Positions 26 to 5,844 of a stretch of DNA of 64,000 nt are shown piece after piece. How positions within the stretch are numbered: the first letter of the stretch is position 1; each line of letters begins with the position of its first letter. The stretch lies in the NCBI GenBank assembly GCA_963727445.1, contig CAVSGI010000015.1, forward strand, positions 402,682-466,681. The letters are read 5' to 3'. This DNA is from an uncultured delta proteobacterium. GTDB taxonomy: Bacteria; Myxococcota_A; Polyangia; Polyangiales; B10-G4. Position numbers and translations under genes: made by a program. The notes beneath the pieces were generated by a model. It was not told the origin of the DNA. It did not search any database and saw only the letters and a program-made list of their open reading frames with translations.

Positions 26-820
26 TCAGCGGCGGCGTCGGGAGGCCGAGGACGTCGTGTCGACCGGCTGCTGTCGCGGTGGTGGTGTGACCGGGGTCTC
101 GCGCGGCGGCGTGGTGTGGACGGGCTCGGGGGTCTCCTCGAGGGTCCCAGGGCCAGTGGACGTGGTCGTCATGGCGGGCGTGGTCGTCATGGCGGGCGTG
201 GTCGTCGTGGTGGACCTGGTCGTCGTGGTGGACATCGTCGTTCGGCGTCGTCTCGGTCTCGGCGTCTCGGCGGGTGGTGGGCCGGTGGCCGGCGGCCCGG
301 CGTCGGGCGGGCCGGCATCGACGGCGCCCTCGTCCGGCTCCCACTGCTCACCCCGCATACGCGCCTCGTGCTCGGCCTCCGAAATGGGCTGACCGTTCCA
401 CGTGGCCGGCAGCCATGCCCGGGTGGTGTGGCAGTCCCCGCAGGTGAGCGGGAAGGTGAGGTGGTCCGGGAAGGTGTCGTCGTCGTAGGTGTCGCGGTGA
501 CAGTCGACGCACGCGCCCCCCATCCCCTCGAACACCGGCGGGTCGTCATCGTGACAATCGAAGCATTCGACGTGTGCGTGCGCGCCGGTCAGCGGCCACT
601 CGTGCTCGACCACCCGCCGCGGCCTCCACCTCTCGGTGGTGTGGCACACCGCGCATGTCGTCGGCTTCTCCCCCACGTGATGTCGCGCCCCCTGGTACTC
701 CTCGAGATGGCACGACGCGCATCGCGCCGAGCCCGCGTCGGGCGAGGCCTCACCACCGTCCGCGCAGCCGAGGAGCGAAAGGCAGAGGAGCCACGAGCCG
801 ATGGCGCGCGCGGCGCGCAT
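26..820 (-). CDS. Pentaheme c-type cytochrome lipoprotein with Pro/Thr-rich C-terminal tail
   Basis: Signal peptide with lipobox (LLG-C); five CxxCH motifs (CASCH, CAVCH, CFDCH, CVDCH, CGDCH); HEWPLTGAH linker typical of multiheme repeats; ATG overlaps the stop of the upstream gene (TGATG). Confidence 0.85.
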   Translation of the reverse strand: MRAARAIGSWLLCLSLLGCADGGEASPDAGSARCASCHLEEYQGARHHVGEKPTTCAVCHTTERWRPRRVVEHEWPLTGAHAHVECFDCHDDDPPVFEGMGGACVDCHRDTYDDDTFPDHLTFPLTCGDCHTTRAWLPATWNGQPISEAEHEARMRGEQWEPDEGAVDAGPPDAGPPATGPPPAETPRPRRRRTTMSTTTTRSTTTTTPAMTTTPAMTTTSTGPGTLEETPEPVHTTPPRETPVTPPPRQQPVDTTSSASRRRR

Positions 821-2811
821 CAGAACACCTCCTCACGAAACGGCATGCCGAGCGACTCGCATGCACGCCGGACCTTCGCGCCGAGCCCCGGCGGGCCACA
901 GAAGTAGACGGAGACCTTTTCGCCGCGGTGCGCCTTCTTGATCGCGGCGAGCTCCTTCTTCCAGCTCGGCGCGCTCATGCGCGTCTTGGCCCGAAGGCCG
1001 GTCGCGAGGTCCGTCCGGCCGTATGCGTGTGCGAGCTCGCGCGCAGCTTCGAGCCCGAACGCCGTCGCACCCGTGCGCCCGCCGGTCATGTGGAGGTGGA
1101 GCTCGAGCACGTCGCGCGCGTCGCGTCTCTCGACTTCGGCGAGCAGATCCCGGAACCATTCGAAAGAGCGCTGATCCCGGTTGAGCCAGAAGAAGTGCGC
1201 CTTGTCGAGGTTGGGACCGCTTCCATCCTCGCGCGAGACGATGCTCTCGAGCACGCTGGCGAAAGGCGTGACGCCGATGCCCGCGCCGATGAGCACAGCG
1301 ACGCGCGACTGGAAGATGTGGGCGCTCGGTGAGCCGTAAGGCCCGTCGAGAAACACGAAGAGGTCGTCCGGCGCCTCCCCGCTTCGCGCCTCCGCCAGGC
1401 TTCGGAGAGCCTCCGTCCAGTTGCCGAGCGAGCGCACGTGGAGGGTGATGGTGTCGCGCTCGGGCGCGCTGCTGATCGTGAACGGGTGCCACTCGTGCTT
1501 TGCCACGGCGGGGATGCGCACGAAGACGTAGTCCGCGGGCGAGAACGAAAAGCCGAGGGGCCGCTCGATCTCCACCCGCGTGACTCCGGACTTCAGCGGC
1601 TCGATCGCGAGGATGCGTGCGCGCCGACCACGCCGGAGCGCGCGAAAGAGCTGCTCGACGCCGAAACCGAGCAGAGGCAGCCCCAGCCACAAGAGGACGT
1701 GCGGCGCGTGAATGACGAGGAGAACGAGCAGCGGCGCATAGAGCAGGTGCGTGAAGTAGAAGATCTCGAAGCGCCGCGAGCGCCGGAAGAAGCCGAGAGC
1801 GGCGATCCACATCACGACGAAGATCACGACGAGCAACGAGCCCGTGAGCCCCGTCTTCGTCTCGAAGAGCGCATGGGTGATCGGCTCGTCGTGCCCCGCG
1901 GAGTAACTCGCGACGAAAGCGCCCACGTGAGCCAGGCTCCCGAAGAAGAACGTGTGCCCCACGACCTTGTGGAAGGCGACCGCGGAGTCGATCGGGATGA
2001 GGCGCCCGAGAAAGCTGGCGCGCAGCCGCGTGAGAAACCGGCGCGCCACGGGCACGAGCACCACACCCGCGTCGAAGGCGAGCGCTGCCCCGGTGGCGCG
2101 CCCGACGCGCATCATCACGTGCTCCCCCAGGACCATGTTGTACGTCGCGACGAAGAGCCCGACGTTCATCAGCGCGAAGGCGGCGAGCACGATGCCGCCC
2201 CGCACGTGGTTTTCGACGAAGCGCGCGAACGCGTTCGGCTCGGGCTCGCCACCCGTCTCGTCGGTCAGGCGTGCGACCACGTCGCGACCCGGGGCCATCC
2301 ACAGAGCCTCGGCGCGTGCCATCTCGTGAAGGAGCTCCGGGCGCGCACGAACGAGTCGCTCGAGCTCCGCGAAGGAGACGCGCCCGTCGCGGTCGGCGTC
2401 GAGCGCCTGGAGCAACCCGAGCGCGAGCGTCTCGGGCGAGTGCTCCTCGTCCGGCTCGATGTCGTCCTCGGCGAGGCCGATGGCGATCATCCGCTCGAGC
2501 TCCGTCTGCGACAGATATCCGTCGCCGTCGTGGTCATGCAGACGAAACGCGAAGGTGAGGCGGTCGTTGTCGGTGCCGTAGACGAGCTTGCGCACACCTT
2601 CCATGAACTCCGCGCGGCTGACGGATCCGTCCGCGTCGGTGTCCAGCTGCGCGAGCATGCGCTGGGCCAGGTACTCGCTCTTCAGCCCGAGCGCTTCCTT
2701 GAGCGATTCGACGTCGATGTGCGGCGCGTCCCCGGCGATCTGATCGAATCGGTGCTGGAGCAGATCGAGGGTCTGGGCCCCGGGCTTTGCGCGACGCGGC
2801 GAGTCGGTCAT
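820..2811 (-). CDS. EF-hand-containing NADPH oxidase / ferric reductase (NOX5-like), 663 aa
   Basis: Start MTDSPRR (ATG 2811) inside the 946-aa ORF; EF-hands DTDADGSVSRAEF, DHDGDGYLSQTEL, DADRDGRVSFAEL; TM His pairs FHKVVGH..LAH and FTHLLY..VIH; FAD motif HPFTISS; DGPYG; NADPH motif GAGIGVTPF; YFCGP; C-terminal FREEVF. Confidence 0.92.
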   Translation of the reverse strand: MTDSPRRAKPGAQTLDLLQHRFDQIAGDAPHIDVESLKEALGLKSEYLAQRMLAQLDTDADGSVSRAEFMEGVRKLVYGTDNDRLTFAFRLHDHDGDGYLSQTELERMIAIGLAEDDIEPDEEHSPETLALGLLQALDADRDGRVSFAELERLVRARPELLHEMARAEALWMAPGRDVVARLTDETGGEPEPNAFARFVENHVRGGIVLAAFALMNVGLFVATYNMVLGEHVMMRVGRATGAALAFDAGVVLVPVARRFLTRLRASFLGRLIPIDSAVAFHKVVGHTFFFGSLAHVGAFVASYSAGHDEPITHALFETKTGLTGSLLVVIFVVMWIAALGFFRRSRRFEIFYFTHLLYAPLLVLLVIHAPHVLLWLGLPLLGFGVEQLFRALRRGRRARILAIEPLKSGVTRVEIERPLGFSFSPADYVFVRIPAVAKHEWHPFTISSAPERDTITLHVRSLGNWTEALRSLAEARSGEAPDDLFVFLDGPYGSPSAHIFQSRVAVLIGAGIGVTPFASVLESIVSREDGSGPNLDKAHFFWLNRDQRSFEWFRDLLAEVERRDARDVLELHLHMTGGRTGATAFGLEAARELAHAYGRTDLATGLRAKTRMSAPSWKKELAAIKKAHRGEKVSVYFCGPPGLGAKVRRACESLGMPFREEVF

Positions 2812-2906: not shown

Positions 2907-5844
2907 CTACGTGTACTGCCAGAACGCGCAGGCGGCGGTCTCGTCGGCGTTCACGAAGACGTAGACCACACCGAAGAGCCCTGCGTCCGGCCAGTCGTCC
3001 TTCGCGCCTCCGATGCCGTCGAAGTCGAGCTGAAGGAGGAAGCGATAGGGAACCTGGCCCTTGCCGAGGATCTCGCGCGGGTGCTGCACCCAGGTTGGCG
3101 TGCCGCCGATCTTCGAGAACCCGTCCGAGCGCGGCAGGTCGAGGGCTTCGAGGGCCTCGGCGAGCTCGGGATCGCGCTGCGTGAGAGGCGAGGCGCGCGC
3201 CTCGTCGATCTCCCACGTCGGCTCCGAGACCATCAGGGCGCGTGCGTCGAGCACGGGCCCCATCGGATCGCACGCCGCCGCCCTGCCGAAGTCTTCCTTG
3301 GAGATCAGGCGCACGCGATTGTGCAGCAGGCTCTCCGTCGCGATGCCGCTCGTGTCGACCCAGACCGAGACGCCCGCGTGCTTCTTCAGGAGATCGCCGG
3401 TCTCGATCTGGAGCAGGAGACCGAGGGGATGCGAATCGCTCCCGTCGCGGAGCTCGCCCATCACCTCTTCGCGCTGTTCCTCCGGAACCTCGAAGAAGTT
3501 CAGCTCCTCGGGCAGGTGCCAGGTCAGCTGCTGCAGCACCTCCCTTTCGGTGGTGGGCCACGCGTCGAGCCCTCCGTCGGCCGGGAGGCCCCCGAGGTGG
3601 CTTCCCTTCACGGGGTCGCTCGCCGGACCGCCGAGGCTGATGGTGCGCATCGGTACGCATGCGAGGCGCTTCAGCTGCTCTTCGCCGAGCTCCTTGGCCG
3701 ACACGAACCCGTTCTCGCGAGCCCCAGCGACGAGCTCATCGAGCTTCGTGAGGGCGGCCTCCGGAGACTTCGCTTTGGCAGGCTCGGCTTCGATGGCGGT
3801 ACCGACCTCGCCCTCTTCGACCAGCACCTCCTTGCCCGTCGTCTTCGCGAACCACACCATCGCCCCGTCGTCGTCGACCCGGTAGAGAGCCGCGCTCCGC
3901 GACTCCACCACGTCCCCAGCGCCCGTTCGTTCCCCGAGCTTGGCCGCCTCGTCGAAGGCCTCCCCGAGAGCGAGCGTGTAGTGCCCCCATGCGTCGTCGG
4001 GGTTCTGCACGTGGAGCGTTCGCGTCGTGGGATCGAAAGCCCAGTCGTCGCAGATCACGCGGAACGCCATGTCCTCGTTCGTGTGTCCGAGGCGCAAGTC
4101 GTCGGGCAGCGTGAAGGACCCCAACTCGTCGCAACCCCCGAGGTCGAAGCGGAAGATGCTCCCGCTCCGGAAGTTCACGATGAGCGTTTGCCCCGTCTTC
4201 GGATCCGAGGCGACGGCCCGCCACGAGTCGTCGTTGAGCTCTCCCATCTTCGGCGGAAGCACCGGTTTGAAGACGTCGCCTTCGAGCACCGCCGCCTCCT
4301 CCCAGCCGATCCGGACGGCCGCCCCGAGGCCGTGATCCCAGATCAAGTGGTAGCCGACCTCGAAGTCGTCTTTGCCGCGGGCGTAGCCCTTGGGTTGCGG
4401 TGAGCTCTTCTTCGCCTTTTTCCACGACCCCTTGGCCGCATCGAAGAGGAGCACCTGGTTCGAATCTGCGCCCCTTGGTCCGGCCGCCCCACACGACGAT
4501 GCGCTCTTCCCTCGGATCGAAGACGAGCTTCGTCCACATGCGCAGCTTCCAGAGCTTCGCGTCGGGGTCGGCCTTCTGCACCCACCGCCCGTCCTCGAGT
4601 GCGAAGACATGACCTTCGTTCGAGATGGCGAGGAGGCTACCGTCACTGGTCTCGACCATGCCTGCGAGGGCGTGCGTATTGCCGCCGCTCCCGCCACCGT
4701 CCCAGAGGTCCTTCTGATCGCTCTTTCCGACGATCGTCTTCCAGCCGTCGTCCGTCCACTCGATCAGCGTCAGGTAGTAGTTGCCCATCATGCGCCAGCG
4801 CCCACCCACGAAGATGCCGAAGCGCTTTGCATACAGATCGCCGACCGCGCTCTTCTTCTCCGTCACACCGAGCTTCTTCCAGCTCCCGCGCCTCTCGACG
4901 TAGAAGACGTGTTGATCCTCGGGATACTTCTCCTCTGCAGGCTCGTAGCCGCCTGGCCCCGTGACGAACCCGCCCAGGGACGCATCGAAGGTCGCGTGTG
5001 CCTTCCGGGAGGCGGGCCGCGGGTCGCCATCCTCGCCCCACGGCTTCCAGCCCCCATCGTAGATCAGCGTCCCACGCCTCCAACCACAGAGCGCGACGAC
5101 GCCATCCGGGTGGGAGACGAGAATCGGCCCGGTGTTCATCCAGCCGGTGATCAGATCCTCGTGCATGCCGTCGTTCGGCAGCAACTCGAGCGTCTCGCCG
5201 TCCCAGGCGTAGAGCCACAGGCGGTCTTCTTCTTCCGCGTCCTCACACACCCAGTAGAAGAGCGTGCGCTCGGTCTTCGGATCCCAGACCCCGCCGAGGC
5301 ACTCCTCCTTCCAATTCGCGTCGTTCGGCAGATCCGCGTCGTCGCGCTTCTTCGCCCACACACCCTCGGCGTCGAGCTCCCACACGCCGAGACCTGTGAC
5401 GCACACGGTGACGCCCCGCTTTCGGTCGTAGGCGAAGCAGCCACCCGTGTCGTCCGAGTCCTCGAGGCGCTTCGGGTGATCGCCCGAGAGCTCGAGCATC
5501 TCGGGGCCCTCGGCTGTCAGGATCACCGCGTAGGTCATGTCCGAGTAGTCGCGTGCGTTGCAGAAGTTCCACGCGACGACGGCTTCGCGCGACACGTCGT
5601 AGACGCCCTGCCATCGTTGCTTCGGGCTCTCGGTCCGAACGGCGACGTCGCTCACCTGAACGAAGGACGCGCCATCCCACTCCCAGGCATGCCCGAACTG
5701 GTGGAAGTCCGGCGAGTGCATGTAGATCGTCCTCTGCCGCTTCTCGTCGTAGACGAGCACGTAGTCCGCGAGGAACTCGCGCTTCGGCGGCAGCTCGATC
5801 GACGCCTCGCGCAGAGGTCCCGCCTGTGTGAACGCTAGCTCCAT
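2907..5844 (-). CDS. Large beta-propeller-like + WGR-like + DUF1963 (YwqG)-like protein, one frameshift near 4467
   Basis: ORF 3736..5844 reads as protein up to RIVVWGGRTKGR and continues in the frame of ORF 2907..4697 (DSNQVLLFD) if one base is removed; C-terminal SHLGGLP / SKIGGTPTWVQ / FLLQLD / FWQYT motifs resemble DUF1963. Confidence 0.65.

Follow-up and report, generated by a model that had tools for sequence, protein, structure and literature searches.

A NOX5-type flavocytochrome gene joined to a multiheme cytochrome lipoprotein gene in Polyangiales: a probable NAD(P)H-to-cytochrome reductase

The gene pair and its products

The window analyzed here is a stretch of 64,000 nucleotides (nt) from an uncultured delta proteobacterium of the order Polyangiales (GenBank assembly GCA_963727445.1, contig CAVSGI010000015.1, forward-strand positions 402,682 to 466,681). 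At its left end lie the two genes with which this study is concerned, one for a NOX5-type flavocytochrome (the oxidase) and, directly downstream of it, one for a pentaheme cytochrome c lipoprotein (Table 1). The oxidase stop and the cytochrome start overlap at base 820 (TGA/ATG), as a previous sequence-only reading of this DNA had described. A Shine-Dalgarno-like GAGGAGG precedes the cytochrome ATG by 7 nt, within the last oxidase codons, but it is not independent evidence because the same bases encode the terminal Glu-Glu of the oxidase. That reading had also named a cytochrome operon extending leftward as a finding that would speak against it; such an operon could be ruled out, since the next gene, an alpha/beta-hydrolase-like open reading frame (ORF) left of the window, is convergent, and the pair therefore forms a two-gene unit. 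Promoter and terminator scans of the locus performed no better than chance. There is no porin in the cassette, and the flanking genes are unrelated to the pair. The gene upstream of the oxidase (2907-5844) seems to be split over two frames (overlapping ORFs 3736-5844 and 2907-4697), possibly by a frameshift.

Table 1 Features of the oxidase-cytochrome pair (positions in the window)
Feature	Position	Strand	Evidence
NOX5-type flavocytochrome gene (P0001), 663 amino acids (aa)	820..2811	-	Pfam, PDB match, AlphaFold model
EF-hand domain: EF1 non-canonical (about residues 26-36), canonical loops 57-68, 93-104 and 138-149	2365..2736	-	Pfam, alignment
Six-helix ferric-reductase membrane domain: heme His 281/295/355/368, Arg238, Thr323-Gly324	1636..2232	-	Model, alignment
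Altered O2 pocket: Phe299 at csNOX5 His317, Ser302 at the following Asn	1906..1917	-	Direct alignment to csNOX5
Gly306-His307 at the outer end of transmembrane helix 3, candidate heme ligand for the partner	1891..1896	-	Alignment, model
FAD- and NAD(P)H-binding dehydrogenase domain: Asp601, Gly581, terminal Phe663	823..1617	-	Pfam, alignment
GAGGAGG, Shine-Dalgarno-like	828..834	-	Sequence
Pentaheme cytochrome c lipoprotein gene (P0002), 264 aa	26..820	-	Lipobox, CxxCH motifs, Pfam, GC3
Signal peptide and lipobox (LLGC19), Cys19	764..820	-	Sequence
Five CxxCH motifs with four conserved distal His (48, 73, 81, 120)	428..721	-	Homolog alignment
Pro/Thr-rich tail ending D-T-T-S-S-A-S (61..41), [S/T]GA[S/T]-like	41..343	-	Sequence, homolog alignment

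The oxidase has the domains by which NOX5 is recognized: a four-EF N-terminus, a six-helix transmembrane (TM) region with four heme His, and flavin adenine dinucleotide (FAD) and NADPH domains with a terminal Phe. Four Pfam domains scored above cut-off (EF-hand, Ferric_reduct, FAD_binding_8 and NAD_binding_6), and the motifs HPFTISS, GAGIGVTPF, CGP and terminal E-V-F are present. The closest PDB sequence was human NOX5 (E = 1.6e-106), and the AlphaFold model, with a mean predicted local distance difference test (pLDDT) of 87 and six TM helices, had NOX5 (8u87) as its top fold match (template-modeling score 0.77). Thus, domain search, alignment, PDB and fold matches all bore out the complete NOX architecture first read from the letters, with three clear EF-hands and one non-canonical. 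EF1 of human NOX5 is likewise non-canonical (PMC7317449). The start at 2811 is correct because the long open frame upstream of its ATG shows a non-coding G+C content at third codon positions (GC3). Among 64 aligned oxidases from cytochrome-linked loci, all four heme ligands (H281, H295, H355 and H368) are present in every copy and the terminal Phe in 62, the remaining two rows being frameshifted.

The cytochrome gene shows a GC3 of 0.7-0.93 in frame throughout, tail included, and an alternative His-rich frame in the tail was ruled out by GC3 and homolog alignment. Its product matched Cytochrome_C7 (29.6 bits against a cut-off of 24.8), and a lipobox-like Cys ahead of the first heme motif is found in 58 of 68 linked cytochromes. 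The host genome has cytochrome c maturation genes (three PF01578 matches). No conserved Met was found as a heme ligand among the aligned cytochromes, and the conserved His outside the motifs number four for five hemes. The protein is therefore expected to hold one heme without an internal sixth ligand, and it does not provide the one distal ligand per heme of an all bis-His wire. The structure model was mediocre (pLDDT 72, predicted template-modeling score 0.44) and gave no fold match; the nearest solved structure is remote (best E = 1e-7).

The end of the cytochrome tail resembles the ApbE flavinylation motif (PMC8238504, PMC11334425). Canonical [S/T]GA[S/T] occurs in the tails of 13 of 47 complete pentahemes, the window copy reading SSAS, and a relaxed pattern derived post hoc, D-x-x-[S/T]-x-x-S, in 37 of 47 (0.6 in shuffles); seven of the 47 lack a long tail. 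The host carries apbE at a place not linked to the pair, and the gene was present in 10 of 10 genomes checked irrespective of tail motif, so that in these 10 genomes its presence fails to separate the motif types. Octaheme relatives end in a three-heme module where the pentaheme carries its tail. In the window, short imperfect tandem repeats (165-235) encode the Thr-rich linker of the tail. In two genomes (L007, region 469-1500, and L008), a tail-less pentaheme gene is followed by an additional cytochrome gene with two CxxCH motifs.

Conservation of the pair and of its outer-heme site

Oxidase loci were drawn from genomes and metagenomes (for the latter, the best 80 of 567), and 17 of 169 loci were removed as duplicates or near-duplicates before counting; 12 loci that had less than 600 nt of sequence beyond the oxidase were set aside when cytochromes were scored. 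The adjacency proved to be conserved in relatives, which the sequence-only reading had made a check of its proposal: the pair was found in 69 de-duplicated loci, 47 of them from GTDB genomes of seven families and 28 genera of Polyangiales and 22 from other contigs. The 68 pairs scored automatically contain 51 pentahemes, 12 octahemes and five shorter cytochromes (four of them cut by a contig end). Spacing between the two genes was -1 or -4 nt in 46 of these 68; other spacings are softer, as the start-codon rule preferred starts near the oxidase stop. The linked oxidases are only about 50% identical across the seven families, and flanking genes vary among the loci, with no third gene conserved beside the pair and no transporter, ApbE or reductase gene conserved next to it. 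Pairwise distances of paired oxidases and cytochromes correlate (r 0.48, shuffle maximum 0.21), which shows co-inheritance only. Two apparent natural oxidase-cytochrome fusions (L145 and P0375) were rejected, being frameshifted at the oxidase end or throughout; among 16 longer hits, one was such a case.

NOX5-like genes, all types taken together, occurred in 68 of the 401 genomes searched in the order and in 22 of 401 in the class; for the phylum, the membrane-domain profile gave 5 of 301. Such genes are thus common in Polyangiales, at odds with the published picture of very few copies, in cyanobacteria (PMC9421330). The bacterial NOX5-like genes mentioned in the excerpts of PMC5676040 and PMC9421330 are cyanobacterial only. 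Full-text searching confined to the open-access literature turned up no pairing of NOX5 with a multiheme cytochrome, and in a broader search no paper on it appeared by title or opening lines of the abstract.

Linked oxidases and their relatives differ at the outer heme. The O2 pocket consists of R256, H313 and H317 in csNOX5 (PMC10510401) and of R54, H115 and H119 in NOX2 (PMC9568551), and the Asn three residues after the pocket His is also required in NOX1 (PMC11031084). At position 299, the counterpart of csNOX5 His317, all 64 linked oxidases carry a residue other than His, which the 54 comparison loci have there. The Asn was present in none of the 64 linked copies, as against 49 of the 54 His-retaining loci. 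A Gly-His pair 11-12 residues past the outer-heme His was found in 64 of 64 linked oxidases and in none of the 63 unlinked ones compared. Further clade-specific changes (237, 239, 245, 366 and 369) lie beside Arg238 and His368, two positions of the outer-heme site. Judged by the alignment, the linked oxidase lacks the His that marks the NOX group generating reactive oxygen species (ROS).

A downstream cytochrome was found in none of the 54 His-retaining loci, each with at least 600 nt downstream. At one of these 54, multiheme genes lie on the opposite strand, 2.4 kb upstream. The host itself encodes a second NOX5-like protein (G000:C9:351152-353098, L189), 39% identical to the first, with His and Asn intact, and no cytochrome was found in the 14 kb around its gene.

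A second case comes from a locus that belongs with proteins named Marinimicrobia (L085, 1026-6965), in which the pocket His of a NOX5 is replaced by Tyr. Here the oxidase gene overlaps an upstream decaheme gene, which is itself preceded by a tetraheme gene and a 453-aa porin-like gene; the resemblance of the latter to porin clusters is noted as a lead. This oxidase groups with cyanobacterial NOX5, far from the Polyangiales clade (SH-like approximate likelihood ratio test (SH-aLRT) 99, low-GC rows being flagged for composition). On its tree placement, it is an independent pairing of a His-less NOX5 with multiheme cytochromes, at a single locus.

Cytochromes of this family also exist without the oxidase; matches to the family were found in 92 of 401 genomes. 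The oxidase-free paralogs often share a cluster with genes for an Fe-S flavoprotein, a membrane protein, multihemes of larger size and what is probably an outer-membrane barrel. One such host cluster (G000:C10:1379650-1388282; L179:5651-14277) encodes a paralog of the cytochrome with 11 hemes, an Fe-S flavoprotein anchored in the membrane by its N-terminus, a membrane protein, cytochromes with 23 and 10 hemes and a probable barrel of the outer membrane; similar clusters were seen in L173, L174, L176 and L180. Elsewhere in the host (G000:C2:64867-79759), large multiheme ORFs follow one another, each with 6 to 29 CxxCH motifs.

Probable function and alternative explanations

Given that O2-pocket residues are lost and that the oxidase stands directly ahead of a five-heme gene in many relatives, electron transfer to the cytochrome is likelier than superoxide formation. 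We therefore regard the pair as probably a NAD(P)H-to-cytochrome transmembrane reductase, whose electrons go to the pentaheme lipoprotein and not to oxygen. In established NOX chemistry, electrons move from NAD(P)H to FAD and then via the inner heme b to the outer one. In the pair, cytoplasmic Ca2+ bound by the EF-hands would switch the oxidase on, a step whose chances by itself we put at somewhat better than even. NAD(P)H would then reduce FAD, electrons would cross the inner membrane via the two b hemes, and the lipid-anchored cytochrome might dock on the exposed outer heme. As four distal His serve five hemes, oxidase His307 could ligate the fifth, possibly as the sixth ligand of the heme that has no distal His of its own. 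The five hemes would conduct the electrons onward, and periplasmic acceptors, for example the separate porin-multiheme cluster of the host, would receive them, perhaps from the flexible tail. Prediction of a complex between membrane domain and heme domain, with scores of 0.00, 0.39 and 0.00 in three runs, spoke neither for nor against such docking.

The sequence-only reading had proposed a calcium-gated, trans-envelope conduit with a dedicated multiheme acceptor. The acceptor part is backed by the loss of pocket His and Asn and by the outer-loop His, invariant in every linked copy. As to the conduit, inner-membrane crossing is supported but outer-membrane crossing is not, because neither a porin gene nor any other third gene recurs beside the pair.

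A number of observations weigh against the proposed reductase function or narrow it, and the first of them concerns calcium. csNOX5 is activated by Ca2+, and both D611 and D631 are necessary (PMC7317449). The three canonical EF loops are conserved among linked oxidases and the D631 equivalent is kept as Asp601, but the D611 equivalent is Gly581, with Gly in 59 of 64 linked oxidases. Asp was found at this position in only 27 of 54 His-retaining bacterial relatives, and Glu588, near the site, is conserved in 61 of 64 linked oxidases. Judged from these residues, calcium gating is likely but may differ from that of NOX5; the Gly makes it a weaker claim than first stated.

Other observations against the proposal concern oxygen. 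The pocket Arg is kept as Arg238 (csNOX5 Arg256, NOX2 Arg54), with Arg in 54 of 64 linked oxidases. The published NOX signature includes a Thr178-Gly179 dipeptide in TM4 (PMC3591440), and the corresponding T323-G324 is also kept (Thr in 56 and Ser in 8 of 64, Gly in all 64), so that the window oxidase matches three of the four signature residues and fails at the pocket His. Dictyostelium NOXC is without His-119, yet preliminary data tied it to ROS (PMC3591440), and SpNOX uses O2 without the pocket (PMC11564096). Moreover, His-less oxidases exist without a cytochrome, and loss of the His therefore does not require a partner. Besides L085, whose cytochromes lie upstream, the 14 His-less loci without a downstream cytochrome include L116, L117 and L119, which gave no match to an EF-hand region. 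Two further observations were made among the 14: nine oxidases of a sister group (L013, L049, L050, L120, L161, L163, L164, L168 and L169) lack the pocket His, the Gly-His loop and the cytochrome, and L090, a relative of L085, keeps the downstream genes of the latter and has neither EF-hands nor cytochromes. Hence, His loss is wider than pairing, whereas the Gly-His tracks pairing exactly.

These points leave room for an enzyme that still makes superoxide or H2O2, for predation, signaling or defense, by outer-sphere transfer from the exposed heme, with the cytochrome as an accessory subunit or oxidant sink. The retained signature residues, SpNOX and the persistence of the His-less sister group all suit such an enzyme. 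It appears unlikely, however, as all 64 linked copies have lost both pocket residues and share a new outer His, the host has a second NOX5 with an intact pocket, and none of the 54 His-retaining oxidases has the cytochrome. Less likely again is a self-contained reductase, in which the open heme or a tail flavin would reduce a small molecule or chelated metal in the periplasm (such as Fe(III) destined for uptake), with His307 as a binding site for substrate or metal instead of heme. The shortfall of distal His, the flavinylation-like tail with ApbE in the host genome, and MsrQ-like proteins with NAD-binding domains, for which a link to flavinylated partners and to iron uptake has been described (PMC8238504), would accord with it. 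On the other hand, the neighborhood of the pair offers no conserved transporter, ApbE or reductase gene, most tails, including that of the window copy, deviate from the canonical motif, and some pentahemes have no long tail at all.

The extent of the pattern must also be considered. In a 75-row tree built without trait columns (nine loci, the window's own and eight partial ones, were excluded), the linked Polyangiales oxidases formed one clade (SH-aLRT 89), which a 258-row FastTree run supported at 0.31. Since pairing in Polyangiales has this one origin, the linked-locus counts are not independent, and a test on independent pairs had three pairs only, with which significance is unreachable. 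Distribution is also patchy, as a genome of the same genus (G001, 86% complete) gave only the His-type paralog. That nearly all pairs come from one clade, and that the cytochrome family also lives without the oxidase, could mean that only descent and co-regulation hold the genes together, with no electron exchange between the proteins, but this is very improbable in view of overlapping or near-abutting frames kept in unrelated gene contexts across seven families at about 50% oxidase identity, of a Gly-His that follows the partner exactly, and of the separate pairing in L085.

The reductase with a cytochrome acceptor may also be stated in a bolder form, which we hold only tentatively and think rather doubtful: a NOX5-lineage enzyme rebuilt as a calcium-triggered NAD(P)H-to-multiheme exporter, with His307 completing a heme of the partner, the tail with a flavin or the three-heme module acting as a swinging arm, and a second origin in Marinimicrobia with a porin-linked wire. 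If electrons do pass to the cytochrome, the NOX5 scaffold could be turned from making ROS to a regulated export of electrons from protein to protein, and calcium signaling would be tied to periplasmic redox in myxobacteria.

Comparison with known systems

The nearest known system is NOX5 itself, both human NOX5 and csNOX5 of Cylindrospermum stagnale (PDB 5o0t/5o0x). The window oxidase shares with it the four-EF, six-TM bis-heme, FAD and NADPH domains, the pocket Arg, the D631 equivalent and the terminal Phe, and NOX5 is its top match in both sequence and fold. It differs in having Phe for His317, Ser for the following Asn and Gly for D611, and in the additional loop C Gly-His and the dedicated cytochrome gene attached to it.

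Porin-multiheme cytochrome conduits of the Mtr type also contain a multiheme lipoprotein, and paralogs of the window cytochrome sit in such clusters, one of them in the host genome. In contrast, the window cassette itself has no porin, and its cytochrome has no close solved relative.

With SpNOX of Streptococcus pneumoniae, the window oxidase shares a bacterial NOX core without a complete eukaryotic O2 pocket. SpNOX reduces cytochrome c directly in vitro, O2 also accepts its electrons, and a protein acceptor has been proposed (PMC11564096). However, the two proteins are only about 15% identical, and SpNOX has no EF-hands and, in the excerpt of that paper, no identified partner. According to two structure papers of 2024, bacterial NOX may have a protein as its as yet unknown physiological acceptor (PMC11564096, PMC11031084); the cassette names a candidate for such an acceptor by gene pairing. 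A ferric-reductase membrane domain feeding a co-encoded extracytoplasmic protein is likewise seen in MsrQ, which hands electrons to its protein partner MsrP (PMC11031084), and in ApbE-associated MsrQ-like systems. MsrQ uses quinol and a molybdoenzyme, and the MsrQ-like clusters contain flavin mononucleotide-binding proteins with an adjacent apbE, whereas the window pair combines a NOX5-type donor with EF-hands and a multiheme cytochrome. By analogy, the pair likely functions as MsrQ or SpNOX would with a protein acceptor, yet descends from NOX5.

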